A DNA stretch of 64,000 bases from an uncultured Gammaproteobacteria bacterium (GTDB lineage: Bacteria > Patescibacteriota > Patescibacteriia > UBA9570 > CAZNEH01), in NCBI GenBank assembly GCA_964572175.1, contig CAZNEH010000001.1:9788-73787 (forward strand), given 5' to 3'. Positions 1 to 20,807 of this stretch are shown piece after piece (positions within the stretch are counted from its first letter, which is position 1; every line of letters starts with the position of its first letter). The position numbers and the translations under genes were made by a program. The notes beneath the pieces were generated by a model. It saw only the letters and a list, made by a program, of their open reading frames with translations, was not told the origin of the DNA and did no database searches.

Positions 1-28
1 CGTGCAGTTGCGTAAGCAAATGCCTCGG

Positions 29-68
29 GCCGTTGTAGCTCAGTCGGTAGAGCATTCCCATGGTAAGG
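29..68 (+). tRNA. 5' fragment of a disrupted tRNA-Thr(GGU) (acceptor, D-arm, 5' anticodon stem and loop up to CCATGGTAAGG); tRNA identity breaks after position 68
   Basis: GCCGTTG-TA-GCTCAGTCGGTAGAGC-A-TTCCC-ATGGTAA-GG folds as a canonical tRNA 5' half. Its exact 3' complement (GGGAA-AGGTC-CGCGGTTCGAATCCGCG-CAACGGC-T-CCA) lies at 7219..7254, sharing the 11-bp core CCATGGTAAGG. Confidence 0.7.
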
Positions 69-180
69 AAGTGGTCTATCCAAATAAGTAATATTTTCGC
101 TAAACTTAGATAAGAAATTGCAATTTAACAAGTGAGACCGACCACTTCTATGGTGGAAGGGGTCGTTAAAACAGTCATTT

Positions 181-256
181 GCCGTTGTAGCTCAGTTGGT
201 AGAGCACACGCATGGTAAGCGTGAGGTCTGCGGTTCAATCCCGCACAACGGCTCCA
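181..256 (+). tRNA. tRNA-Thr (anticodon GGU), intact, element-borne
   Basis: Cloverleaf: acceptor GCCGTTG/CAACGGC, D-arm GCTCAGTTGGTAGAGC, anticodon stem CACGC/GCGTG with loop ATGGTAA (anticodon GGT), T-arm TCTGCGGTTCAATCCCGCA, then discriminator T and encoded CCA. Confidence 0.85.
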
Positions 257-293
257 ACTAACCAGAGCATTCATACTTCCACATAAAACAAGT

Positions 294-1196
294 ATGAATA
301 TGAAAATTAAACAAGTCCATGAGCAATTTTGTGAATATCAAATTGCTTTTAAGGGTTTTAGCCCTAAAACTATATTAGGTTATCAGATTGCCCTGGGAAT
401 ATTTCTTAAACATTTTCCTGAGATCAATTCTTTTGAACAGATTACCGAAACAAAAGTACAAAAGTTTTTTTACTGGGGGAGAACTGAAAGAAATTGGTTG
501 CCAGCAACATTTATCACATACCACAAACGCCTTAAGGTGTTTTTTGATTACTTAGTTAAAAATAGCTTTATAGCCAAGAATCCATTTGAGAATATTGATA
601 AGCCTAGTTTGGGCAGAAGACTCCCAAAAGCTTTGACAAAACAACAAGCACAACAAATATTAGACAAAGCCTTACATGAGAGTGCAGTAAAAGAATTCAC
701 CCGTATTCGTAATCATGCAATGTATACCGTGTTTCTACATGCTGGTTTGCGTAAGGGTGAAGTTTTAAAGTTAACTATGCAAGATGTTGACCTAACTAAC
801 AATAGATTGAGCATTCGTGAAGCTAAGGGCGATAAAGACCGCTTTGTGCCAATATCAAGTAAGCTTCATTCAGTTTTAACTCGTTATGTTAATCTCAGAG
901 TAAAAGAGGGGAAATATGCAGAACAGTTTTTTGTATCTTCAAACCGAGATGTTGGGCTTACTGATAATGGCTTGAAGCATGTACAAGATACCATGGAAGC
1001 CTTGGTAGACTTTAAATTTCATCTTCACAAGCTCCGCCATACTTTTGCTACGCTAATGCTTGACGGAGGCTGTAATATCTATACATTATCCAAGATTATG
1101 GGGCATAGTGATATAAAAACGACTACGATATATCTTTCAACATCTACGGAGTTACTTCAGAGCGAGATACATAAACATCCACTTAATTTAATTTGA
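294..1196 (+). CDS. tyrosine site-specific recombinase / integrase (phage integrase family)
   Basis: C-terminal catalytic region has HKLRHTFAT...GHSDIKTTTIYL (R..H..R..Y signature). It lies immediately 3' of the tRNA and is a paralogue of the 4838..5743 product. Confidence 0.85.
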   Translation: MNMKIKQVHEQFCEYQIAFKGFSPKTILGYQIALGIFLKHFPEINSFEQITETKVQKFFYWGRTERNWLPATFITYHKRLKVFFDYLVKNSFIAKNPFENIDKPSLGRRLPKALTKQQAQQILDKALHESAVKEFTRIRNHAMYTVFLHAGLRKGEVLKLTMQDVDLTNNRLSIREAKGDKDRFVPISSKLHSVLTRYVNLRVKEGKYAEQFFVSSNRDVGLTDNGLKHVQDTMEALVDFKFHLHKLRHTFATLMLDGGCNIYTLSKIMGHSDIKTTTIYLSTSTELLQSEIHKHPLNLI

Positions 1197-1235
1197 TATT
1201 GCCAATTTAGTTATATAAGGATATATTATCTTTAT

Positions 1236-2384
1236 ATGCAACAAGAAAAGTATGATGAAAGTGTAGTTAAAAACCAACATTATATACCAGTTGGTTTATT
1301 AAAAAATTTTATTAATTCAGATAATAAAATATTTGAAGCATTATTAAGTGTTCCTAAAATTTATCCCTCAACACCAGAGAAATCAATGTCTGCAAGATTC
1401 ATTTATGAGGATGATCATCTTGATTTAAATGCAGTAGAAAAATATTTTTCGAATATCGATTCAGAAATTGCACCTAAGGTTAAAGATGTTATAGAAGCTA
1501 TAGAAAAGTATAAAAAAAATCAGGTAGAATTTTCATATATACAAGAATTATTTGAAAAACTATTATCTATTTTTGTCGTGTTTTATTATCGTAGCGGAGC
1601 GTTACTAACTGAATTTTCAAGCATAGATTCAAAACATAAAATACCTTTATTAACAAAAAAAATTCATAATCAAAGATACATAAGTTTATTGTCGCAAACT
1701 ATAAAAGAATGTTATAAATTTGCTATTATTGAAAGTGATGAAAACTTCTTAATTAGCGATCAGTTTATTTCTACGGCTGCCTTAAAAATAAAAACTCAAT
1801 TCGCCAATATTTCTAATCGTCATATAGGAATAAAAGAAACTTTAATTTTGATACCAATATCCTCAAAGTATTATGCTGCGTATTGGCATTCTGATAGCTC
1901 ATCACTTTTATCCGAATCGGGCATAAATAAATTAGATGAATCACAAATTCATGAATTTAATGCTGTAATTATTAATAACTCTTATTTAAAATGTGTTGGT
2001 CAAAATGAAAATGATTTAAAAAAAGTTATAGATCGATACAAAATGGAGTTTCCTTCACAAGTATTTATTGGACATAGAGGTGGGGGCAGCTCAGGTTATA
2101 TTAGAAAAAAAGAAATATTTTTTTCAGAAAAAGAGAAAGAAGCATACGAATTTTTAATTCACCCCTCACAAAACATTAACGAATTTTTAAAGGCGAAATC
2201 TAATGATAAATGCCCATGTGGTAAAGAGATAAAATTTAAAAAATGTCATAGAGATATTGTTTCAAGAATAAAAATTCCTATACAAAGTTTTAAGCAGGGC
2301 GTTGATCCAACAGCATATAGAATGCCAAATGTTTCTGCTGTAGAGTTGCCAATAGATGAGTGGGGTCCTTATGCTGGAAATTAA
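1236..2384 (+). CDS. DUF4238-like protein with C-terminal SEC-C-type zinc-binding motif
   Basis: N-terminal HYIPVGLLKNF resembles the DUF4238 HY[IV]PQ..L.NF signature. C-terminus CPCGKEIKFKKCH resembles the SEC-C CPCGSGKK(Y/F)KKCC motif. Confidence 0.5.
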   Translation: MQQEKYDESVVKNQHYIPVGLLKNFINSDNKIFEALLSVPKIYPSTPEKSMSARFIYEDDHLDLNAVEKYFSNIDSEIAPKVKDVIEAIEKYKKNQVEFSYIQELFEKLLSIFVVFYYRSGALLTEFSSIDSKHKIPLLTKKIHNQRYISLLSQTIKECYKFAIIESDENFLISDQFISTAALKIKTQFANISNRHIGIKETLILIPISSKYYAAYWHSDSSSLLSESGINKLDESQIHEFNAVIINNSYLKCVGQNENDLKKVIDRYKMEFPSQVFIGHRGGGSSGYIRKKEIFFSEKEKEAYEFLIHPSQNINEFLKAKSNDKCPCGKEIKFKKCHRDIVSRIKIPIQSFKQGVDPTAYRMPNVSAVELPIDEWGPYAGN

Positions 2385-2393
2385 TATAAATAT

Positions 2394-3101
2394 ATGAATA
2401 TATTAACATTACATGAGAAACGTGAAACACTAAAGGGAACTAAAATTATTAGACTTCTAAAGCACTTAGCTGTAACTCACTATTCTTTTAGGGTTAATTA
2501 TAATGAATTATCAAAACTAATAAATATATTTGAGAAAGATGATGAAATAATATATTTAAAAAATAGAGAAAAAATAGATCGATTACTATATGAATTTTCT
2601 CGTTTATTATTAAATTATATAAGTTCAGTATCGACTTTTGTTGATCACGTTAGACGAGTTAGACATAAATTAAATAATGATAAAATTGATAGGCAGTTTA
2701 AAAAAGAATTAGATAATATATCAAAAGACGAGAATATAATTTTTTTAAAGGATTTACGTAATTACACAATACATGAAAAGTTGCCAGAAGTGGCAGCTAA
2801 TTTTACTCTTAAAAATCAAGTAAATGGTCAAAATAATAATCAGGAATTAGGCATAGTTAAGGAGGCTATACTTGAGTCGACTTATTGGACAAGAGGGTCT
2901 AAAGATTTTTTGTCAAAACAAGCAAAAATGATTCCAATAAAAAAAATATTAAATAGTCATTATCAAGTATTTAATGATTTTCAAGAAAAATTTTATAAAT
3001 TAGTTACAGAAGAATATAAAAATGAAATACAGGATTTAATCGAAGTTGAAAGACAGATGAATAAATGGATGAATAAAAAACAACCAAAAGAGGATAATTA
3101 A
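2394..3101 (+). CDS. hypothetical protein (island cargo)
   Basis: Long ORF in AT-rich coding context with no recognisable motif. Confidence 0.45.
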   Translation: MNILTLHEKRETLKGTKIIRLLKHLAVTHYSFRVNYNELSKLINIFEKDDEIIYLKNREKIDRLLYEFSRLLLNYISSVSTFVDHVRRVRHKLNNDKIDRQFKKELDNISKDENIIFLKDLRNYTIHEKLPEVAANFTLKNQVNGQNNNQELGIVKEAILESTYWTRGSKDFLSKQAKMIPIKKILNSHYQVFNDFQEKFYKLVTEEYKNEIQDLIEVERQMNKWMNKKQPKEDN

Positions 3102-3127
3102 TTCTATTTACCTCATTAGTTTAATTT

Positions 3128-3685
3128 TTAATTTTGAAAAGTTAAGATTAATTTGTTGAGAATAGTTATTAATTCTTCTTTTGCTGGCTCACCATTTAAG
3201 TTTGATATCTCTCCACTATAATACTTATCTTCGTATTTAAAATCAAAAGCAAGTGAAGAATGAGCATTTGTAAGCATAGTTCCATTTAGTTCGTAGTCTT
3301 CTTCGTAGCCAATTTGAACTTCAATGTTATTAATAGTTTTAGTAGATTTTTCCAATGGATAAGTTTCAGCATGTATATCAAGATTTTCATTGCTACTAGT
3401 TAACGCTACAGAGAAATCACTATTACCGGCTGGGCTATAAGTATAAATTCCCGCTTGAGAACTTTTTAAAGTAAAACCAGATAATTTATTTAAATTAACA
3501 CCTTGCTCTACTTCTTCATGGTTTACATTTGAAGTTTGCGAACTAGTTTTATTAGTATTTCCATCTTTTTCATCATCCTTAGGAGTTAACATTAAAATTA
3601 CAACTCCCAAGATAATAATTAGTAAAATAGCGATACCAATTTTTTCAGAAGCAATTAATTTTGGCTTCTTTTTTTCTTCTTTCAT
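3128..3685 (-). CDS. hypothetical membrane-anchored/secreted protein
   Basis: N-terminal hydrophobic helix IGIAILLIIILGVVILML follows a basic N-terminus. Ser/Thr/Asn-rich ectodomain. Confidence 0.5.
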   Translation of the reverse strand: MKEEKKKPKLIASEKIGIAILLIIILGVVILMLTPKDDEKDGNTNKTSSQTSNVNHEEVEQGVNLNKLSGFTLKSSQAGIYTYSPAGNSDFSVALTSSNENLDIHAETYPLEKSTKTINNIEVQIGYEEDYELNGTMLTNAHSSLAFDFKYEDKYYSGEISNLNGEPAKEELITILNKLILTFQN

Positions 3686-3730
3686 TTTGATTGTTCATTA
3701 ATTATTATTTTCTGCCAACCAAAAAAGGCG

Positions 3731-3854
3731 ACAGGATTAGTTGGCACTACGTAATAGTTCCCAAAGGAATTCTTACGCTCCTGCCGCCATCTCTATTCGT
3801 AAGAATAAGAGATAACGACTATGAGTCGTCCTTTGGGTTTAATTACGTAGTGCC
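3731..3854. repeat. long imperfect inverted repeat / branched stem-loop (~125 nt)
   Basis: Arms TGGCACTACGTAAT...ATTACGTAGTGCCA, CCCAAAGGA...TCCTTTGGG and CTTACG...CGTAAG are nested. An internal ACGAC-tatga-GTCGT side hairpin is also present. Confidence 0.6.
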
Positions 3855-3991
3855 ATTTACTATTATAGCAGAAAAGTAAGTAAAGTTAAGTATTTTATCT
3901 ATCTGGCATTATTAGAAGTAAATTTTTCAATTGAATATTATATAATTAATATAGAGGGAAAAAGCATTTTTTTACATATTTTTACACTTTT

Positions 3992-4387
3992 ATGAACGAT
4001 ATTGAGCAAAAAGCCTGTGAATTAAAATACTCGGGCATAAAATATAAGAAAATGTCTGAATTATTGGATGTTAATTACGATACTTTAGTTAGCTGGTTTA
4101 GAAAAGATGGGAAGATATATCAAGATTATCAGGAATATGCCATAGAAACGAATAGGCAAGCTAAATTAAGGGCTATTAATTTACTGACTAATAATGTCGA
4201 AAGAGCAATTGAAGTGCTAGTTAATGAAATGCATAATAGCGATTCTTCACAGGCAAAAATCAAAGCAGCGTGCGAGATACTAAATAGAGTTATTAAAAAT
4301 AATGAAACGCAGGAAAATGAAGAAACTATGACATGGGAGGATTATGTAACATTAAGGGAAAAAGAGATGGGGAATAACGGTAAGTAA
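3992..4387 (+). CDS. small HTH-type DNA-binding protein (putative regulator / terminase-small-like)
   Basis: KYSGIKYKKMSELLDVNYDTLVSWFRK has a helix-turn-helix character. Located within the island. Confidence 0.4.
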   Translation: MNDIEQKACELKYSGIKYKKMSELLDVNYDTLVSWFRKDGKIYQDYQEYAIETNRQAKLRAINLLTNNVERAIEVLVNEMHNSDSSQAKIKAACEILNRVIKNNETQENEETMTWEDYVTLREKEMGNNGK

Positions 4388-4672
4388 ATTTTTAAAGCTT
4401 AAATGCTACCATTATAGTAGAGGGGAAAACGCTAAAATATTAGCAAAAAAATACACTTATAGCGGCAGTGTTTAAACAACCGCTCCGAATACTGGTCTAA
4501 TGGAGAAAAAATAAAAGACCAACTATATAGATGAGGTAGCCCAGCAAGACTTGAGCACAGAGGCCTCTAGAATAAACAATCTGCTGTACCCCAAGGCGAC
4601 AAATAATTCTTTTTTAAGAGTTGTTAGTCTATTTGTCCGGGGGGAGTAATAATACATTATAATATATAATTT

Positions 4673-4834
4673 ATGTCTAAAAGAAAGAATCAATTTAGAA
4701 AACCTAAATTAATACAATATAGATCAGTTTGGTTAACTCAAAAGGGGTATGAATTATTAAGGTTAGCAAAAAAGGAAGAGAAAAAATCTATGATGGCAAT
4801 TGTTAATGAATTAATTAAGGAAAAATATAAATAG
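4673..4834 (+). CDS. ribbon-helix-helix (CopG/Arc-like) small protein, candidate excisionase/regulator (53 aa, not in ORF track)
   Basis: ATG at 4673 after a TATAAT at 4660. Translation MSKRKNQFRKPKLIQYRSVWLTQKGYELLRLAKKEEKKSMMAIVNELIKEKYK has a beta-strand then two helices. It ends 3 nt before the second integrase. Confidence 0.55.
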   Translation: MSKRKNQFRKPKLIQYRSVWLTQKGYELLRLAKKEEKKSMMAIVNELIKEKYK

Positions 4835-4837
4835 TAG

Positions 4838-5743
4838 ATGGAATTAAGAGAAGCTTTTAAACAATTTATTGTTGAAAGTCAAAATGGACGCTTTGCTTAT
4901 AATTCTGATAAAACTATTTTGAAACATAAAAATGTTTTTGAGCTTTTTGTAAAATGGATTCCGACAGAAAGAGTTCAAGATTTAAATGAAGAGCTGTTAT
5001 GGAGATATTTTAATAAAGGAGAAACTACTCGAGACTGGAAACCATCAACCGTGATAACTAATCGTACTAGTCTTTCAAGATTTTTAGATTGGTGCGTGAT
5101 TAATAAATTATTAAAAGAAAATCCTATAAAAAAAATTCCACGACCAAGATTAATTAAAAACACTCCCGACTATTATAGCGAGGAGGAAATTGACAAGATT
5201 TTGTATACTGTCAACAAATTATTTAAACGACAATTAACTAGAGCGAGAAACATGGCAATGATAGGGATTATGTTATTGGCAGGCCTTAGAAAGGGTGAAT
5301 TATTAAAACTAAAAATAACTGATGTTGATTTCAGTAATAAAGTTATAAGAATTAGAGCAGAAAATGCAAAAAATAGGAAGCCTAGGTCTCTGAATATAAG
5401 TCATAAATTAGAAGAACTACTAAAGGTTTATATTTCGTTGAGAGAGAAAAAAGGGATCAAAGCTTATAGCTTATGGGTATCATCAAATAATCATGCTCCA
5501 CTAACTGAAAATGGTTATAATCATATATTAGAAACGTTATCAGAGGGGGTTGGATTTAAGGTTAAATCTCATAAGTGTAGGCATACCTTTGCAACTTACG
5601 CATATAAAGGATGTAAAGATATTATGGCAGTAAAAGATGCCTTAGGACATGCTGATTTAAAAACCACGCTAGTTTATGCTACTCCCTTAGCTGAATCTAC
5701 TAAGTTAACTATAGAAGTTAATCCGATAAATGATTTGTTTTAA
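4838..5743 (+). CDS. tyrosine site-specific recombinase / integrase (second copy)
   Basis: HKCRHTFATYAY...GHADLKTTLVYA catalytic signature. Shares N-terminal blocks with the 294..1196 product. Confidence 0.85.
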   Translation: MELREAFKQFIVESQNGRFAYNSDKTILKHKNVFELFVKWIPTERVQDLNEELLWRYFNKGETTRDWKPSTVITNRTSLSRFLDWCVINKLLKENPIKKIPRPRLIKNTPDYYSEEEIDKILYTVNKLFKRQLTRARNMAMIGIMLLAGLRKGELLKLKITDVDFSNKVIRIRAENAKNRKPRSLNISHKLEELLKVYISLREKKGIKAYSLWVSSNNHAPLTENGYNHILETLSEGVGFKVKSHKCRHTFATYAYKGCKDIMAVKDALGHADLKTTLVYATPLAESTKLTIEVNPINDLF

Positions 5744-5789
5744 TTAAGTTTTTTTAGTATTATATTATTATTAACTAATAATAATATAA

Positions 5790-7055
5790 ATGAAAATATT
5801 TAATAAACACTTACATGACATTACTTATGATGAAATAATATCTTTTTGCAATGAAGGGCATATAGAAAGTTTATATTTAGATTACAAAGAAGATGTGAGT
5901 AGATCAAATTCAGTTGCTAAAACTTCAGCGGCAATGGCAAATTCTTTTGGCGGAATAATAATAATAGGTGTTGCTGATGACAATAATTATCCTAAATTAC
6001 CTGTAAAGGGTCTAGATAAATTAACAGAGGAGCAAATTACTCAAATAATTTCAGATAACACATTTCCACTAATTACACCAGAAATAAAAGTATATAAAAA
6101 AGCTAATCGATATTTAGGTATAGTTAGAGTTAAGCCATCGCAATCTACTCCAATTTTTTTTACTAAAGATAATACTATTCCTGTTAGAGTTAATAATATT
6201 ACAAAAAAATTTGAAGATAATGCAGATTTAAAACAGTTAGATTGGTTATGGAATAATAGAAAAAAATCTATAGAACTTTATGAAAATTGTTTATCATTTG
6301 CCAGGGATACTTTCGAAAAACAACGAAGTAATTTACATGGATTGGAATCTTTAATTGAAGCAAAAAAAGATCCATATTCTCCCCGCATGGTTAACTCTAA
6401 ACGCTTGTTAAGAGATCCGCATTATTTTCCAAATAGAATCGAAATATTTTCTCGACCTATTTATCCTGATATTACCCCCTTGAAAAATCCGAAAGAATTA
6501 AATGATATTTTTCCGAAAATTAATGTAAATGTAGATGAAAATTGCGGAGAGTTTCCAAGAAATATTCACAAAAGACGACGTATTTCCGGTGGTAGTATTA
6601 TTCAAGAATTAAAATCTAGAGGTTTAATTTATACCGAAATTAATCAATATGGATTATATTATCATAATGAAAAAATAATTATGCAAGATTATGATTTAAT
6701 GATTGATGAACATTATAACATTGACCATTTAACAAGCGAAGCTATAGCAGTATTAAAATGGCCAGTATTAAAAGGAGTGTTTATTTCCTTTTTAGAGTCT
6801 TTAAAACTATTTTATAAAGAAATTGAATATTATGGATATATTGAAATTGGTATAAAGCTTTTCTCTGTAAATACTATGCAATTAATTAAGGAGCAAATAG
6901 AAACTGAATTATATGATTCTCCTTTAGGCGCTTACTCAGTTGATGATTATATAAATTGGGATAGTGGAATTATCAATGTTTCAGAAATTGATAATAATTT
7001 AATAAATGATCTCGAAGAATACATTGATGATTTATTCGATTATAAAAAAAGATAA
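5790..7055 (+). CDS. AlbA_2 (Schlafen-like / divergent AAA_4) DNA-binding domain protein
   Basis: ESLYLDYKED...AAMANSFGGIIIIGVADD matches the AlbA_2 E..lEfK...AfaNt.GG.iiiGv.d signature. Confidence 0.6.
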   Translation: MKIFNKHLHDITYDEIISFCNEGHIESLYLDYKEDVSRSNSVAKTSAAMANSFGGIIIIGVADDNNYPKLPVKGLDKLTEEQITQIISDNTFPLITPEIKVYKKANRYLGIVRVKPSQSTPIFFTKDNTIPVRVNNITKKFEDNADLKQLDWLWNNRKKSIELYENCLSFARDTFEKQRSNLHGLESLIEAKKDPYSPRMVNSKRLLRDPHYFPNRIEIFSRPIYPDITPLKNPKELNDIFPKINVNVDENCGEFPRNIHKRRRISGGSIIQELKSRGLIYTEINQYGLYYHNEKIIMQDYDLMIDEHYNIDHLTSEAIAVLKWPVLKGVFISFLESLKLFYKEIEYYGYIEIGIKLFSVNTMQLIKEQIETELYDSPLGAYSVDDYINWDSGIINVSEIDNNLINDLEEYIDDLFDYKKR

Positions 7056-7207
7056 TTATTACTTTCTTTTTATAATATTATTTGTTATTATTTAAGTATT
7101 AATTATTAAGTGGAAGTACCCAGCGGTTAATACTGTTTATACTCACTGAAACAAGTAGTTTAAATCTAACCTTAGCCGAAAAACAAGGATTTTAAAACCT
7201 CGACCTA

Positions 7208-7254
7208 CCATGGTAAGGGAAAGGTCCGCGGTTCGAATCCGCGCAACGGCTCCA
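7208..7254 (+). tRNA. 3' fragment of the disrupted tRNA-Thr(GGU) (anticodon loop, 3' anticodon stem, variable loop, T-arm, acceptor 3' strand, CCA)
   Basis: CCATGGTAAGG-GAA-AGGTC-CGCGGTTCGAATCCGCG-CAACGGC-T-CCA. Perfectly complementary to the 29..68 5' half. Confidence 0.7.
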
Positions 7255-7326
7255 ATAAGCTACCCGAAAGGGTGGTTTTTTTTAACATTGACAAAAGCCA
7301 TAAAAATAGGGTATATTAATAGTACA

Positions 7327-9345
7327 ATGAAACATTTCAAAATATTATTTATCATCACTTGTTTGGCCAGTATTGCGTTTTTTAGCCAGGCAGCCTTAGC
7401 TCAGAATAGAGTTAAGAATTTTCGGGTTACAAATGAAACTTCAGAAACTATTACCCTTAAATGGAAGGCAAATCCTAGAGCTGTAAAATATAAGATTATA
7501 GTAAAAGAACAGGGAGGAGAGTTAGTTAAAAAAGTTTATACTACTAAAAATAGAAAAAAGATAAAGAATTTAAAACCAGATACAGTTTATAAATTTAAAA
7601 TTCGGGCTAAATTCAAAAGAAGATATAGTAAGCATTATAAAATTATTAGAGTTCGAACTGATTCTGCTACGCCAGCTCCGCAGGAACCAGAACCAATTCC
7701 TGAGCCAGAACCTGTTCCAACTCCCGAACCTGAGCCAGAGCCTACTCCCGAGCCTGAACCAACACCAGAGCCAGTTGATAACGACGGCGATGGTTACACT
7801 GAAGAAGAGGACTGTAATGACAATGATGCCACTGTTTATATAAATCAAACATATTACCAAGACTTAGATAGTGATGGGCTAGGTTCAGATACATCTACAT
7901 CAATATGTTCTTCTGTTACTCCAGAAGGTTATGTAACTAATAGTAATGATTCAAACGATAACGACTACGACAACGATGGCGTAGAAACTGGCATTGATTG
8001 TAATGATACCAATTCCGAATTAACCGTACATAATACTTATTATTTAGATAGCGACAACGACAGTTACGGTACTTCTGAAGGAGTTCAATTCTGTGCTAAT
8101 GAACCACCGGCTGGATATGTAACTAATAACACTGATTGTGATGATAGTGATTTAAATGTAAATACAGGCCAAGCATATTACCAAGATTTAGATGGTGATG
8201 GACTAGGTTCAGATATATTTACTTCTGTTTGCTCAAGTACTCCACCGACTGGTTATGTAACAAATAGTAATGATGTAAATGATAACGATTACGACAACGA
8301 CGGCGTAGAAACTGGCACTGATTGTAATGACACAGATGTCGATTTAGCTTACACAAATATTTATTATTTAGACACAGATAGTGATAGTTATGGCGTATCA
8401 ACTGGTACAGAATTATGTGCCACTGAAACACCAGCGGGTTATGTTACTAATGGTGATGACTTAGATGATTATGATCCTGAGATTGGTGATACTGAGCCAG
8501 AACCTGGATTGGATATACCATTTGGTTTTTGGGGCTTGAATGGATACACAGATTCTGATGGACTTGCTTATGTGCAAGATAATTTTGGGGTAAATGTTTA
8601 CCAAGTTTTATCTGATGGGCCAAATTATAATTTAAACACTTTGTTACCTAGGGTTGAAGCCGCGGGAATGAAGGTTAACTTGAATATCACTGGTAATTAT
8701 TATGACTTTAGAGATAGAGATAATAATTTTGATATAAATTTATGGAAACAGTCTTTAGATGATTATTTTAGTGATTCAGATACGGCTGTAGAGACTCAAG
8801 AGTATATTGATAACGGAACGATTGTTGGAATTATGATTTTAGATGATATTTATAATTATAGTTATTCTTATGGAGGAGTTAATCCTACTTCAGCAGAATT
8901 AGAAGAAATGGCTTGTGATTTAAAAGGATATGTTGATGTAACAACTTGGATTAGGGAAGATGTTAGTTATTTAGATCCTTATCAATTTAGCTGTTTAGAT
9001 GCCGCTGGTTTACAATATTCAGCTGTTAAAGGATCAGTGGAAGATTATATTTCAGTACAAGGGCAATTAGCAAGTGATTTAAATCTTGATGTGGTGGCTG
9101 GTTTAAATATTTGTGATGGCGGTGATGGTTCTAGCGGGCAAATTGGTTGGAGAAGTGGTAAGTATACGATGACTCCAGAAGAAATTACTACTTATGGTGA
9201 AGCGATGCTGGGAATGGACAATGTGATTATGTTTTTAATGTGGGAGTATGATGCTAATGAAGTGTGGGCAGATGGGGTAACAGTTGGAGCTGATTATTTT
9301 AATCAAGACGAGTATAAAGAAGCAATATATAATTTAGGTCAATAA
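7327..9345 (+). CDS. large secreted surface protein: signal peptide, Lys-rich FN3-like domain, Pro-Glu-Pro linker, four MopE-like Cys/Asp metal-binding repeats, C-terminal domain
   Basis: The true start is the in-frame ATG at 7327, not 7210 which overlaps the tRNA fragment. A TTGACA-N18-TATATT promoter lies upstream. Signal peptide MKHFKILFIITCLASIAFFSQAALA. Linker PEPEPVPTPEPEPEPTPEPEPTPEP. Repeats of type CNDND..TYYQDLD.DGLGSD. Confidence 0.75.
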   Translation: MKHFKILFIITCLASIAFFSQAALAQNRVKNFRVTNETSETITLKWKANPRAVKYKIIVKEQGGELVKKVYTTKNRKKIKNLKPDTVYKFKIRAKFKRRYSKHYKIIRVRTDSATPAPQEPEPIPEPEPVPTPEPEPEPTPEPEPTPEPVDNDGDGYTEEEDCNDNDATVYINQTYYQDLDSDGLGSDTSTSICSSVTPEGYVTNSNDSNDNDYDNDGVETGIDCNDTNSELTVHNTYYLDSDNDSYGTSEGVQFCANEPPAGYVTNNTDCDDSDLNVNTGQAYYQDLDGDGLGSDIFTSVCSSTPPTGYVTNSNDVNDNDYDNDGVETGTDCNDTDVDLAYTNIYYLDTDSDSYGVSTGTELCATETPAGYVTNGDDLDDYDPEIGDTEPEPGLDIPFGFWGLNGYTDSDGLAYVQDNFGVNVYQVLSDGPNYNLNTLLPRVEAAGMKVNLNITGNYYDFRDRDNNFDINLWKQSLDDYFSDSDTAVETQEYIDNGTIVGIMILDDIYNYSYSYGGVNPTSAELEEMACDLKGYVDVTTWIREDVSYLDPYQFSCLDAAGLQYSAVKGSVEDYISVQGQLASDLNLDVVAGLNICDGGDGSSGQIGWRSGKYTMTPEEITTYGEAMLGMDNVIMFLMWEYDANEVWADGVTVGADYFNQDEYKEAIYNLGQ

Positions 9346-9396: not shown

Positions 9397-9594
9397 TTAG
9401 ACCTTTTGAACGTTTACAGCTCGAGGGCCTTTATCAGAATCCTCAGTTTCGAACTCAACAGTATCACCAGATTTTAGCTCTTCATAAGAAATGCCAACTA
9501 GTGAGTTTGAGTGGAAGAAAAGATCTTTTTCTTCTCCTTCGATAGTGATGAAACCAAATCCCTTGTCTGTAAGGGTTTTAATAACTCCTGTCAT
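9397..9594 (-). CDS. cspA: cold-shock protein (CspA family)
   Basis: KGFGFI RNP1 motif in a 65-aa OB-fold-sized protein. Confidence 0.9.
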   Translation of the reverse strand: MTGVIKTLTDKGFGFITIEGEEKDLFFHSNSLVGISYEELKSGDTVEFETEDSDKGPRAVNVQKV

Positions 9595-9721
9595 AGGTGT
9601 GATTATTTGTTTAATTTTTTTAATTTAGAATTTATATAAGTTCGACGACACTTTTTTGCTCTATGGTTAGGAGTATACCAAATATGCTAAAAAAAGCAAG
9701 TTTTGTGCTATAATTAATAAG

Positions 9722-10789
9722 ATGAGAATTAAATATTACAAAAATATGGAAGGAAGTAGATCAAGAAGGGTGGGGTTAAGAGATGCGGTTAAGAAAACAG
9801 CCGAGGTCGGAGTTAGGTCTATTGTGGCTAAGTTAGAGGGTAAAAGTACTTTTGGGGTGGGCTCTAATTCTATTTTAGCGGCCTGTGCCATGGCTTATCC
9901 AGAAAGATGTGATATTAAACAAGAGGTAGAGCGAGATGCTTTGCCGGTTTTAATGAGATATGTGATGGGTTATAACGATTGGGTAGATGTGGGGGAGGAT
10001 CTTCCAGAAGGAAATGAGTTTAGAGATTATTTTGAAAGTGAATTAGAAAAACATAAAGCAGCTTGGTATGCATATTTGGATCAAATGCCAAATAGAGAAG
10101 AGGCTGATGCCTTAAGACTTCGAACAGACCAGATTATGGGTGATTTAGCGACCATTGAAGGAGCAGCTAAGTGTGTAGAAGGGGCGGATAATCCTTATCG
10201 AGAGGAATTAGACTTAAAAGAATTGGCTAATGGAGTGGACGCTATTTTAGGAATTATTGCTTGTGTGGATCATAATATGTTTGCCGATAGGATGGATACT
10301 GATCATGATACTTCGACTATAGAAGGGGTGAAAGCAAAATATGCCTGGTTAGTTGATTTGGATTATGAAGAGGTGGAAGGCAATGAGTTAACAGAGGATG
10401 AAAAAAGAGCTAGAATGCTTTACTTGGCTTCTATGGCTGCGCAAATGCAAAATGATATTAGTATTTATGATTATGACAAGGCTTTAGGAGTTGTGAAGCC
10501 AATAAACGTGTTAACTGACGTAGTTGGTCTTTCTAAAGAGGACGCAATTGAGAGAACAGAAAGAGAAGAGGCAAGGTATATTAGATTAGCGAAGAAATAT
10601 GGGTTCAAAAGAAGAGTGATTAAAATAGGGGATATTGGTTATAGGGCTGGTAATGATTGGTTGCATGGAATAGTAGACTTGGCTCGGAGCCAAGACCCAG
10701 ATAGTGTTATGAGAAAGTTGATTGCGGCTGGTTTTAAGAAAACTGGTTGTGTGAGGCAGGAGATGATGGTGAATAGAGATGATGAATAA
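9722..10789 (+). CDS. hypothetical protein
   Basis: An extended -10 (TGCTATAAT) lies directly upstream of the ATG at 9722. No recognisable domain. Confidence 0.5.
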   Translation: MRIKYYKNMEGSRSRRVGLRDAVKKTAEVGVRSIVAKLEGKSTFGVGSNSILAACAMAYPERCDIKQEVERDALPVLMRYVMGYNDWVDVGEDLPEGNEFRDYFESELEKHKAAWYAYLDQMPNREEADALRLRTDQIMGDLATIEGAAKCVEGADNPYREELDLKELANGVDAILGIIACVDHNMFADRMDTDHDTSTIEGVKAKYAWLVDLDYEEVEGNELTEDEKRARMLYLASMAAQMQNDISIYDYDKALGVVKPINVLTDVVGLSKEDAIERTEREEARYIRLAKKYGFKRRVIKIGDIGYRAGNDWLHGIVDLARSQDPDSVMRKLIAAGFKKTGCVRQEMMVNRDDE

Positions 10790-12872: not shown

Positions 12873-13637
12873 CTAATCAATCTTTTTATATTGTCTCACC
12901 GCGATGGGGAAGGCGAAGGTGAGGATGCCAGCGATCCAGAGGAGGATGTACCAGATAGAGTTTTCGTAGCTGCCGGTGATCATGAGTCCGCGGATGGAGT
13001 CGATGGCATAAGTGACAGGGCTGTGTTCGGCGAACCATTTTAAAGCAGTGGGCATGGAAGCGGTAGGGACAAAGGCAGAGCTAGCAAAGGTCATAGGAAA
13101 CATAAAAACCATTCCAGCCATTTGAGCAGTTTCGGTGTTTTTTACAGATAAGCCAATAATAGTCATGACCCACATAATAGCAAATCCAAAAAGGACGGCT
13201 AAAGCAATGCCAGCGATAGCTTCTAAAGGGCTTTGTTCTATTCGAAAGCCAATAGCATAGCCAACGCCGATCATGATACCAACGGTAAAAAGATTACGTA
13301 AAGAGTCAGCCAAAGTACGGCCAGCAATAACTGCGGATCGAGTCATAGGTAAAGAACGGAAACGATCCATAAGACCCCTAGTCATATCTTGAGACAATCC
13401 CACCGCCGTGTTGACTGCCCCAAAGAGAACAGTCTGGATAATAATAGCTGGAATAAGATAGTTGATGTAAGAGTTACCAGGAACATCAATAGCGCCACCA
13501 AAAACATAAGCAAAGAGAAGAACAAAGATAACAGGCTGGACCGCAGAGAAAAAGATTAAGCGAGGAGAGCGTTTATAGTGAATCAAGTTTCGTTTGGTGA
13601 TTTGCCAAGTGTCTGAAAAAAAGTTTTGTATATTCAT
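12873..13637 (-). CDS. ABC-2 type transporter permease
   Basis: Six predicted TM helices. Translationally coupled to the upstream ABC ATPase. Confidence 0.75.
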   Translation of the reverse strand: MNIQNFFSDTWQITKRNLIHYKRSPRLIFFSAVQPVIFVLLFAYVFGGAIDVPGNSYINYLIPAIIIQTVLFGAVNTAVGLSQDMTRGLMDRFRSLPMTRSAVIAGRTLADSLRNLFTVGIMIGVGYAIGFRIEQSPLEAIAGIALAVLFGFAIMWVMTIIGLSVKNTETAQMAGMVFMFPMTFASSAFVPTASMPTALKWFAEHSPVTYAIDSIRGLMITGSYENSIWYILLWIAGILTFAFPIAVRQYKKID

Positions 13638-19824: not shown

Positions 19825-19909
19825 GGGTCGGTACCAAAGCGGTCAAATGGGGCAGACTGTAAATCTGCTGGCATCGCCTTCGCTGGTTCGAATCCAGCCC
19901 GGCCCACCA
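19825..19909 (+). tRNA. tRNA-Tyr (anticodon GUA), class II with long variable arm, CCA encoded
   Basis: Acceptor GGGTCGG/CCGGCCC. Anticodon stem-loop GCAGA-CTGTAAA-TCTGC. T-arm GCTGGTTCGAATCCAGC. TTGACT-N17-TATATT promoter upstream. Confidence 0.85.
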
Positions 19910-19949
19910 GTGGCGTTTGCTACGCAACCGCACTGGCACGCCTCCCCGC

Positions 19950-20023
19950 GCCACCCTAGCTCAGCTGGTCAGAGCAACTGTTTTGTAAACAGTAGGTCGT
20001 CGGTTCGACTCCGACGGGTGGCT
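19950..20023 (+). tRNA. tRNA-Thr (anticodon UGU)
   Basis: GCCACCC-TA-GCTCAGCTGGTCAGAGC-A-ACTGT-TTTGTAA-ACAGT-AGGTC-GTCGGTTCGACTCCGAC-GGGTGGC-T. No encoded CCA. Confidence 0.85.
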
Positions 20024-20123
20024 CAGAAATATAATTAAGTAGATCTGGACAAGCCAGATCATAACAGCACTGTTAAGATGGGCTGTTGTGACCGAGCTTG
20101 CCTAGGTCATAAAAAAGTAAAAT

Positions 20124-20279
20124 ATGTCTCAAGATCGATTGATCAAACTGGAATGCACTGAATGCAAACGAGTAACTCATCATTCTTTTAAGAACAAAAA
20201 GATTCATAAGGAAAGATTAGAGTTAAGTAAGTTCTGTAAATTCTGTAAAAAGCATACCCCTCACAAAGAAACTAAATAA
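20124..20279 (+). CDS. rpmG: 50S ribosomal protein L33 (51 aa, not in ORF track)
   Basis: [51 protein letters not shown]: CxxC...CxxC zinc ribbon with the KN.K..PEKLELKK(Y/F)C..C.KHT.HKE L33 signature. Confidence 0.9.
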
Positions 20280-20285
20280 TTTTAT

Positions 20286-20723
20286 ATGGAGGATAAAAAT
20301 TGTGTCTTTTGTAACGAGGAACAAATAGCGGCTCATCAGATTTATGAGACCAAGCTTTTTAGGATTTTAATTGATAAGAAGCCGATTGCGGCCGGACATT
20401 GTTTAATTGTTACTAAGCGACATACTCCATCTTTTAGCTATTTGAATCAAGACGAAGTAGAAGAATTTGCCTATCTAATTAAAAAGTTGGGCTTAGCGTT
20501 GATGCGGGCAGTTCGTGCTGAAGGATACAATGTGTTGTTTAATGAAGGAACTGCGGCCGGACAAACAGTAAATCATTTTCATATTCACGTAATTCCTCGC
20601 CAGCAAGAAACAGCGGATATTAATCCTAAAGATGTTTTAGCTAAAGCCTTAAAAGCAAGAAAAGAATTAAGTATAGAAGAAGTAAAAGAAGCTCGAGAAA
20701 ATCTTTCCAAAGAGATTTATTAA
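20286..20723 (+). CDS. HIT family hydrolase
   Basis: Histidine triad VNHFHIHVIP. Confidence 0.85.
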   Translation: MEDKNCVFCNEEQIAAHQIYETKLFRILIDKKPIAAGHCLIVTKRHTPSFSYLNQDEVEEFAYLIKKLGLALMRAVRAEGYNVLFNEGTAAGQTVNHFHIHVIPRQQETADINPKDVLAKALKARKELSIEEVKEARENLSKEIY

Positions 20724-20728
20724 AATAT

Positions 20729-20803
20729 GGGGGCGTAGCTCCAATTGGCTAGAGCACTGGTCTCCAAAACCAGGTGTTGCAGGTTCGAATCCTGCCGCCC
20801 CCG
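20729..20803 (+). tRNA. tRNA-Trp (anticodon CCA)
   Basis: Acceptor GGGGGCG/CGCCCCC. Anticodon stem-loop CTGGT-CTCCAAA-ACCAG. T-arm GCAGGTTCGAATCCTGC. Confidence 0.85.
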
Positions 20804-20807
20804 CAGT

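Follow-up and report, generated by a model that had tools for sequence, protein, structure and literature searches.

An integrative element of Patescibacteria that probably splits a host tRNA-Thr(GGU) gene and brings its own replacement

What becomes of a tRNA gene when an integrative element enters through its anticodon loop and neither junction rebuilds it? The question is raised by a 64,000-nucleotide (nt) stretch of a Patescibacteria contig (GenBank CAZNEH010000001.1, positions 9,788 to 73,787; hereafter the window), in which the two halves of a tRNA-Thr(GGU) gene lie 7.1 kb apart and the DNA between them encodes another, complete tRNA-Thr(GGU) and two tyrosine recombinases, designated Int1 and Int2. 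The analysis indicates that window positions 69 to 7207 are probably an integrative element of Patescibacteria (candidate phyla radiation [CPR]) that splits the tRNA-Thr(GGU) gene of its host and brings a replacement. Coordinates refer to the window unless a related contig (L004, L084, and so forth) is named.

The 5' half of the host gene (29 to 68, forward strand; GCCGTTGTAGCTCAGTCGGTAGAGCATTCCCATGGTAAGG) comprises the acceptor strand, the D-arm, the 5' strand of the anticodon stem (TTCCC), and the anticodon loop, and it forms the left part of the left attachment site, attL. The 3' half (7219 to 7254, forward strand; GAAAGGTCCGCGGTTCGAATCCGCGCAACGGCTCCA) supplies the 3' stem strand GGGAA, the variable loop, the T-arm, the acceptor strand, and CCA. 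It is followed at 7257 to 7288 (forward strand) by the intrinsic terminator of the original host gene, which a terminator scan recognized as a 9-bp stem and a T-run. Joined in silico, the halves gave a 76-nt cloverleaf with the anticodon stem TTCCC/GGGAA that ARAGORN called tRNA-Thr(ggt), just as the original prediction had proposed for these two segments. An identical 11-bp core at both junctions had also been claimed, and indeed the 64-kb window contains two and only two exact copies of CCATGGTAAGG, at 58 to 68 (forward strand) in attL and at 7208 to 7218. The second copy and the displaced host 3' half after it make up attR (7208 to 7254, forward strand), and the center of the core is the anticodon loop ATGGTAA (60 to 66 and 7210 to 7216). 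Guanine-plus-cytosine (GC) content is 25 to 31% in the element versus 34 to 43% in the flanks. These observations support the assignment of 29 to 68 and 7219 to 7254 as the host's split gene, interrupted by 7.1 kb of low-GC DNA.

The junctions themselves do not encode a tRNA. Neither ARAGORN nor Rfam called a complete tRNA at 29 to 104 or at 7180 to 7254; the uncalled read-through from attL (29 to 104) folded weakly, at -14 kcal/mol versus -30 kcal/mol for the joined halves, in agreement with the reconstruction that had been put forward; and the sequence after the attL core (AAGTGGTCTATCC...) has no T-arm or acceptor strand, so that the target was not regenerated. The sole complete tRNA that ARAGORN and Rfam recognized between the halves is the element-borne tRNA-Thr(GGU) at 181 to 256 (forward strand; encoded CCA; Rfam tRNA score, 66.9 bits), which ARAGORN also called tRNA-Thr(ggt). 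It is intact and, as anticipated, different from the host gene, with another anticodon stem (CACGC/GCGTG), D-loop, and T-arm. These differences bear on a more familiar explanation, an ordinary restoring integration in which 181 to 256 would be the reconstituted target, 7208 to 7254 would contain its displaced 3' half, and 29 to 68 would be an unrelated leftover. Restoration is the usual state of islands that integrate into tRNA genes, and two relatives (L106 and L120, described below) do exactly this, but for the window it is extremely improbable. The sequence GGGAA at 7219 pairs with TTCCC of 29 to 68 and not with CACGC of 181 to 256, which identifies 29 to 68 as the host gene; the acceptor stems of the related locus L095 discriminate as well; the junction repeat is only 11 bp long and includes no tRNA 3' half; and in L004 the intact gene sits in the place of 29 to 68, directly after the TPR gene.

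L004, a contig of a Patescibacteria metagenome-assembled genome (MAG), shows the locus uninterrupted. In the source contig of the window, L082 (window position 1 is L082 position 9702), rpsB-tsf-PSP1-TPR lies directly to the left of the 5' half, which starts 36 nt past the TPR gene. L004 has tsf-PSP1-TPR, followed by an uninterrupted tRNA-Thr(GGU) gene with a TTCCC/GGGAA stem, a terminator, and csp. Amino acid identities between the window and L004 are 68% for tsf, 62% for PSP1, 38% for TPR, and 83% for csp (9400 to 9594 in the window), and, in the context of the joined gene, the 5' half is 73/76 identical with the intact tRNA at this syntenic site. Judged by this conserved order, L004 is the empty site in a related, non-conspecific genome, with the uninterrupted gene between the same neighbors for which a search of relatives had been recommended. 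A scan of one genome per species with a 23-mer of the 5' half (D-stem to loop) found 81 loci, all of them uninterrupted tRNAs, and Int1 or Int2 homologues were present near none of the 81 within up to 8 kb per locus. The original prediction had named, as grounds for its own rejection, relatives that offered no empty site and no related recombinases; L004 offers the former, and recombinases 69 to 74% identical to Int1 lie in split tRNA-Thr(GGU) genes.

Intact halves and a break in the anticodon loop could also mark a functional split tRNA, with halves that are transcribed apart and then trans-spliced, as those of Nanoarchaeum equitans are. That explanation can practically be set aside. Unlike the trans-spliced split tRNAs of Nanoarchaeum, the flanks of the two halves share a longest perfect complement of just 6 AT-rich nt (40 nt past the 5' half compared with 40 nt before the core); the organism is bacterial, with an 85-nt class II tRNA-Tyr and encoded CCA; the break is a recombinase-bounded insertion that is absent from L004; and a complete isoacceptor adjoins. 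An integrative insertion into the host gene is the reading that is pursued below.

The machinery for such an insertion is present in duplicate. Int1 (300 to 1196, forward strand; 298 amino acids [aa] in the public call, with the open reading frame [ORF] starting from 294) matched PF00589 (E = 3.5e-30), a SAM-like N-domain, a PHROG integrase family, and P0001 (100%); the 300-aa form of the ORF had no exact match on record. Int2 (4838 to 5743, forward strand; 301 aa) matched PF00589 (E = 4.1e-29) and a PHROG integrase family. The two are 36% identical to each other (BLASTP, 6e-59), which bears out the description of them as paralogous tyrosine recombinases, and the catalytic set R-K-HxxR-H-Y, read in the translations, is intact in both.

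Comparison of the attachment sites suggests where strand exchange takes place. The shared core is 11 bp long in the window, 10 bp in L084 (CATGGTAAGG), 8 bp in L087 (CATGGTAA), and 7 bp in L095 (ATGGTAA). The 7-nt anticodon loop ATGGTAA (60 to 66) is the probable crossover segment because it is the common denominator of these cores and has the size of a tyrosine recombinase overlap region. On the element side, the right core half-site GGAAGTGGTC (67 to 76, forward strand), with which the P' arm starts, preserves the spacing that AGGTC has in the variable loop of the tRNA. The same 10-mer adjoins the core in L084/L085, and the other relatives have NNNNN-(A/T/C)(G/A)GTC past the loop, a spacing equal to that of a tRNA stem plus AGGTC. 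The P arm (7056 to 7207, forward strand) contributes an imperfect inverted copy to the left of the core, which in the window is the left half-site GACCTACC (7202 to 7209), and also contains the arm-type repeat GTGGAAGTACC (7110 to 7120). This repeat lies about 100 nt before the core, repeats the right half-site, and is kept at an equal distance, as TGTGGAAGTGGTCGA, in L083 and L084. Just upstream of the carried tRNA, the P' arm has the palindrome GACCACTTC-TATGGTG-GAAGGGGTC (140 to 164, forward strand), whose half-sites resemble the core half-site and whose GACC..GGTC spacing of 17 nt equals that of the attP core. The palindrome overlaps a promoter-like TTAACA-18-TATGGT (125 to 154), and it has analogues in L084, L246, and L248, the half-sites of which track each element's own core half-site. 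It may therefore be a recombinase binding site or a regulatory site.

The following mechanism is proposed. The element would enter the host tRNA-Thr(GGU) gene by site-specific recombination catalyzed by a tyrosine recombinase, with strand exchange in the 7-nt loop ATGGTAA between imperfect inverted half-sites; the exact crossover positions within the loop are deduced. The attP site (7056 to 7218 joined to 69 to 180) would share only the loop and a few flanking bases (11 bp) with the tRNA, and hence neither junction would rebuild the gene. The element's own tRNA-Thr(GGU), situated between attP and the Int1 gene, would replace the lost one, so that carrier cells would keep decoding ACC and ACU codons and would probably become dependent on the element. 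The attP of an ancestor may have included a tRNA 3' half, which, after the element had acquired a complete tRNA-Thr(GGU), may have decayed to the bases that the recombinase needs. The P' arm of L084 keeps AACGGC, a remnant of the acceptor strand. Either recombinase or both could act at the core, and the element may still be able to excise; if so, the predicted junctions are ...GAGCATTCCCATGGTAAGGGAAAGGTCCGCGG... for the empty site and ...AACCTCGACCTACCATGGTAAGGAAGTGGTCTATCC... for the circular attP.

This architecture recurs. The contexts of Int1 relatives were gathered by exact look-up and a metagenome scan, and nine independent loci (the window, L084/85, L087, L092, L095, L100, L103, L109, and L246) have the same order at the left end: an orphan tRNA 5' half, roughly 70 to 175 nt, a complete tRNA-Thr(GGU), about 40 to 70 nt, and Int1. 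In all nine the orphan half ends in ATGGTAA, except in L109, where it ends in TTGGTAA. Where the contig is long enough (the window, L084/85, L087, and L095), the matching 3' half follows the second recombinase gene, and the stems of the orphan 5' and distal 3' halves pair (CCACC/GGTGG in L084/85, TTTCC/GGAAA in L087, and ACTCC/GGAGT in L095). In L095 the acceptor stems of the halves also match each other (GCCCGGG/CTCGGGC), unlike that of the inner tRNA. A second recombinase lies between Int1 and attR in L083 (of which only the right end is available), L084/85, L087, and L095, and one lies downstream of Int1 in L109, where no attR was found. Relatives with Int1 at 69 to 74% identity are inserted in the same kind of split tRNA-Thr(GGU) gene and have their own complete tRNA-Thr(GGU) but carry different cargo. 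L246 (Int1, 68% identical) has the same layout at the same rpsB-tsf-TPR locus, and in total the tsf-TPR neighborhood is followed in three genomes (the window, L084/85, and L246) by elements that are related to one another and whose cargo is not. The smallest element, in L095, is 3.7 kb long: it has the tRNA and Int1, then three small ORFs, then Int2 and a fourth small ORF. As it holds little else, the tRNA and the recombinase pair seem to form the element's core. In a scan of viral contigs with a recombinase alignment, only distant recombinases (at most 32% identical) were found.

Two more-distant members of this recombinase family integrate in the anticodon loop as well, but in the restoring mode. 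L106 (9838 to 9913 and 18643 to 18682) lies on tRNA-Thr(UGU) and L120 (2268 to 2344 and 4605 to 4644) on tRNA-Met; their integrases are about 43 to 44% identical to Int1, an intact tRNA stands by the recombinase gene, and a displaced 3'-half repeat stands at the far end. Neither has an extra tRNA, an orphan 5' half, or a second upstream copy of the tRNA in question. Compensation for the destroyed host gene is the best explanation of the carried tRNA because these restoring relatives carry no extra tRNA.

Additional evidence indicates that the carried tRNAs are under selection for function. A tRNA-Thr(GGU) gene lies 36 to 130 nt upstream of a recombinase gene in at least 14 related loci, and the carried tRNAs vary between elements in their acceptor, anticodon, and T stems, where the changes are compensatory, all remaining canonical tRNA-Thr(GGU); such a pattern would be expected if function were maintained. 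In nine loci (the window, L084, L087, L092, L095, L100, L103, L109, and L246), the carried 5' exon differs from the local host gene at 3.3 of 36 nt and from hosts elsewhere at 6.5 (permutation p, about 5e-5), and host half and carried exon even have oddities in common, as in L103 (CTCATTTGG) and in L109 (the loop TTGGTAA). The local resemblance could fit selection for the local translation machinery, co-diversification, local capture, or gene conversion between neighboring repeats. The altered anticodon stem of the window's carried tRNA was also considered as a source of immunity against integration, and this idea was dropped: the targeted hosts have the diverse stems TTCCC, CCACC, CGTCC, TTTCC, CATCC, ACTCC, and GCTCC, and the other intron-less carried tRNAs have ordinary stems.

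It could be objected that the carried tRNA compensates for nothing, another tRNA-Thr(GGU) gene or a tRNA-Thr(UGU) reading all four codons being available, and that it serves, for example, to counter anticodon nucleases or to adjust codon usage, roles that have been discussed for phage-borne tRNAs (PMC10865867). The portion of the genome seen is 64 kb plus about 10 kb, and a tRNA-Thr(UGU) gene is present at 19950 to 20024. This alternative is nevertheless improbable. In every relative that targets tRNA-Thr(GGU), the carried anticodon is that of the destroyed gene, and the lack of a second copy in the restoring L106 (Thr-UGU) and L120 (Met) is what compensation predicts. Moreover, Patescibacteria genomes usually hold single-copy tRNA sets.

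Several points weigh against a compensating, mobile element. No empty site of the same strain was found, a look-up with csp having returned only the same sample; no excised circle or attP-bearing contig was found, and the exact element occurs in one sample only; no transfer or packaging genes were detected in the window copy; a second tRNA-Thr(GGU) gene may lie beyond the 64 kb plus about 10 kb seen; and expression of the carried tRNA and the need of the host for it are deduced from sequence. Some of these points would equally suit a fixed fossil, that is, a one-time insertion that is now immobile and whose tRNA has been domesticated as the host's tRNA-Thr(GGU) gene. The missing circular form and the stacked remnants in L095 and L248, with extra orphan 5' halves and decayed junctions that suggest decay in place leaving the tRNA behind, speak for such a fossil. 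Both recombinase ORFs are, however, full length with intact catalytic motifs, the host halves retain perfect complementarity, the two copies of the core have not diverged, and relatives with Int1 at 69 to 74% identity have wholly different cargo at the same type of site, which implies recent mobility of the family. A fossil is thus unlikely, though less so than the other alternatives, and the window element may still be mobile.

The stacked loci are of interest in their own right. L095 contains two orphan tRNA-Thr 5' halves in a row (9418 to 9456 and 9526 to 9562), and only the second has a downstream mate (13291 to 13336). This arrangement suggests that an earlier, intron-less replacement tRNA was itself split by the later 3.7-kb element and that tRNA genes have been replaced serially. 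The L248 contig (1 to 1130) opens within an intron-bearing tRNA-Thr(GGU) gene; after it come an ORF of 117 aa, some decayed tRNA-like sequence, and a junction at the core (CTCTTCC-ATGGTAAGG-AAGTGG) from which a tRNA 5' half is missing, ahead of an intron-less tRNA-Thr(GGU) and Int1. Stacked remnants, a secondary site, or a tandem array might each account for this region. When L248 was considered as an unintegrated attP form, the sequence to the left of its core failed to align with the P arms of L083, L084, and the window.

The carried tRNA-Thr(GGU) genes of eight related loci have an insertion of 193 to 211 nt between U36 and A37: L084 (9728 to 9921, within the carried gene at 9692 to 9961), L087 (9729 to 9923), L092 (1634 to 1835), L095 (9722 to 9914), L103 (5652 to 5862), L105 (365 to 565), L109 (9701 to 9895), and L248 (24 to 219). 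The insertions align well with one another, the upstream exon has U (..GGU) as its last base, and the insert has G. All have in common a core, GACUG...AAGAUACAGUC, of the group I P7/J8-7 type in which the P7-like pairing GACUG/CAGUC is invariant, as well as a UGCC guide sequence opposite GGU, and the consensus fold has compensatory changes in 21 of 46 predicted pairs. No Rfam group I hit was obtained on L084 9670 to 9980 at E<=10, and the intron-bearing gene of L105 was mislabelled tRNA-Pro by ARAGORN. By their splice-site rules, core motifs, and covariation, the insertions appear to be group-I-like introns. The carried tRNA of the window (181 to 256) has no intron according to ARAGORN and Rfam, the gene being uninterrupted, and Rfam scans of window positions 1 to 8000 at E<=1 and of the whole window at the gathering score returned tRNAs only.

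Divergent group I introns at position 36/37 of Patescibacteria tRNA-Thr(GGU), missed by the Rfam model RF00028, have been described, for example, in GCA_001029635.1, GCA_016700375.1, and GCA_030583745.1 (Nakagawa et al., mSystems 2026, PMC13011429). They and the introns of the present relatives occupy the same position of the same host gene, are similar in size, and are both missed by RF00028. The difference is that the intron-bearing genes found here adjoin a recombinase gene, inside elements that split an intron-less host copy. No mention of an integrase, a recombinase, or a genomic island was found in a word search of the article, nor does the Results or Discussion of the tFind report (Williams 2020, bioRxiv) connect introns with recombinases.

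The intron interrupts the middle of the crossover segment and therefore may make the tRNA gene that the element carries unusable as an attachment site. A joint proposal can be built on this, offered tentatively and as doubtful rather than likely: that in many members of the family the replacement gene holds a self-splicing intron in the middle of the crossover, where it would act as a DNA-level shield, destroying the attB-like site and blocking integration by the element itself and by competitors, while splicing would restore the tRNA; that the elements would both transport the divergent tRNA-Thr introns of Patescibacteria and explain why these are selected; and that elements decaying in place would gradually take over from host tRNA genes, as the stacked halves of L095 and L248 suggest. 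It bears on this proposal that the carried tRNA of the window lacks the intron and that intron-less carried tRNAs look like good targets, and the L095 example, which lies past an orphan half, is split. The intron core is not exclusive to the elements, since GCCCGAACGACTGACAAGG...GATACAGTCTAC is present in four IMG/VR viral contigs (L249 at about 1820, L250 at about 4137, L251 at 3495, and L252 at about 1785; coordinates of L249, L250, and L252 are those of the reverse complement), in which no tRNA or recombinase was found nearby; there, related introns presumably lie in genes of phages.

The remaining genes of the element are cargo. They encode a DUF4238 protein (1236 to 2384, forward strand), a 235-aa protein (2394 to 3101, forward strand), a 185-aa probable membrane or secreted protein (3128 to 3685, reverse strand), a 131-aa protein (3992 to 4387, forward strand), and, downstream of Int2, a 421-aa protein with a Schlafen/AlbA_2 domain (5790 to 7055, forward strand; PF04326, E = 5.4e-19) that had no PADLOC hit. 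Four ORFs in the interval have no assigned function. Directly upstream of Int2, a 53-aa basic protein is encoded at 4673 to 4834 (forward strand), where a ribbon-helix-helix (RHH) gene had been predicted. That assignment could not be upheld, as there was no Pfam hit and the best PDB match, the RHH regulator AvtR, had an E value of 2.3. A single-sequence AlphaFold model of the protein is all-helical (predicted local distance difference test [pLDDT], 74), and a homologue with 53% identity is encoded in L083 (6670 to 6798), about 430 nt before the second recombinase gene (7234). The 53-aa protein is possibly DNA binding or a directionality factor.

Phage, satellite, and defense identities were considered for the window copy and found no support. 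Among the eight element ORFs, Pfam and PHROG searches revealed no capsid, tail, portal, large-terminase, replication, or conjugation families. PHROG matches with an assigned function at E <1e-3 were limited to the two integrases and "DNA helicase" on the Schlafen/AlbA_2 protein (E = 1.2e-5), and a "transposase" family matched the 131-aa ORF at E = 0.0057 only. The absence of virion families from the eight ORFs does not fit a temperate phage or prophage. Relatives L083, L084/85, and L248 encode Terminase_2-like (small-terminase-like) proteins and no virion genes. The 131-aa protein at 3992 to 4387 is unlike these and had no Pfam hit, and no replication gene was recognized in a comparison with satellites of the phage-inducible chromosomal island (PICI) type, so that a phage satellite is unsupported for the window copy. 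A defense role is likewise unsupported, PADLOC having returned only a short zinc-motif match. Among the cargo of L084, a LOOT RNA (RF03000; 63.8 bits, above the gathering score) is encoded at 13147 to 13265 on the reverse strand.

Several observations concern the surroundings and the assembly. Between the host tRNA 3' half and csp, positions 7327 to 9345 encode a secreted protein of 672 aa that has a fibronectin-III domain and a linker rich in proline, threonine, and glutamate. The tRNA gene and csp adjoin in L004, and this gene therefore reflects a separate insertion or loss. At 19825 to 20804, tRNA-Tyr(GUA), tRNA-Thr(UGU), a 145-aa ORF, and tRNA-Trp(CCA) are clustered; a bacterial (Patescibacteria) origin is consistent with a class II tRNA-Tyr of 85 nt and with CCA ends that are encoded. 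Within the element (at about 4560 to 5800), the Logan assembly of SRR8146440 is broken, with L082 ending near 4560 and L253 beginning inside the Schlafen-domain gene. The Int2 region is missing from the Logan contigs of SRR8146440, which may reflect a repeat or a change in coverage.

Loci of this kind have practical consequences. Counts of tRNAs used to estimate MAG completeness mis-handle them, and so do island finders that seek a restored tRNA together with a displaced 3' fragment. In addition, the intron at the base where the recombinase would cut, in the element-borne genes of these loci, makes a self-splicing intron that guards a gene from site-specific integration a testable idea.

Systems that use two tyrosine recombinases include XerC/XerD, which act at dif, and Tn554, with TnpA and TnpB. 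The window element resembles them in having two paralogous, catalytically complete recombinases, and its asymmetric core, with GACCTACC on the left and GGAAGTGGTC on the right, could bind different subunits. Unlike in XerC/XerD or Tn554, the two genes are far apart (300 to 1196 and 4838 to 5743), and the element targets the anticodon loop of a tRNA gene.

The anticodon loop is one of the classical target classes for integration into tRNA genes (sublocation classes of Williams 2002; Islander, PMC4383910). The element is like such anticodon-loop islands in its 7-nt loop crossover, in the symmetric anticodon stem flanks, and in the integrase gene by the attachment site. In those islands, attP carries the 3' part of the tRNA and the gene is regenerated, whereas the attP of the window keeps the loop and a vestige (NNNNN-GGTC). 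The original prediction had set the anticodon loop against the usual 3' end; the loop is an already known class, and what is unusual is a host gene left unrestored.

The closest precedent is the tRNA-dependent lysogeny of actinobacteriophages, experimentally shown, in which a tyrosine integrase acts on an 8- to 17-bp core in a host tRNA gene (Guerrero-Bustamante and Hatfull, mBio 2024, PMC10865867). In these phages (Fionnbharth/K4, Cluster L, Cain, BrutonGaster, OneUp, Mollymur, and Gaia), no functional tRNA remains at attL or attR and the phage tRNA has the same anticodon, and their close relatives, with integrases of the same family, restore the tRNA (PMC10865867). The window element likewise has a tyrosine integrase, a short core in a tRNA gene, no restored tRNA, and a tRNA with the same anticodon; every sequence-level hallmark of tRNA-dependent lysogeny is present, without phage genes. 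It thus appears to work like tRNA-dependent lysogeny, and on present evidence it is not a prophage. It differs from the actinobacteriophages in its host (Patescibacteria versus Actinobacteria), its size (7.1 kb versus 40 to 75 kb for the temperate phages), its two recombinases versus one, the placement of the carried tRNA directly between attP and int, its target tRNA-Thr(GGU), and the group-I-like intron in the carried tRNA of eight related loci, and dependence of the host on the carried tRNA is here a prediction. The whole arrangement had been called unusual, and this holds for the phylum and the type of element but not for the destroy-and-replace strategy, given its experimental precedent in actinobacteriophages (PMC10865867). 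Full-text literature searches yielded no paper on such elements in Patescibacteria. What is new, by comparison, is the occurrence in this phylum, the small size of an element that showed no phage genes, and the pairing of recombinases, together with the vestigial attP and the intron-bearing replacement tRNAs in the family. Destroying the host tRNA and bringing one's own, previously shown experimentally only in actinobacteriophages, is thereby extended to Patescibacteria, with their reduced genomes, and to a small element that has two recombinases, and the strategy may therefore be a general way of becoming hard to lose.

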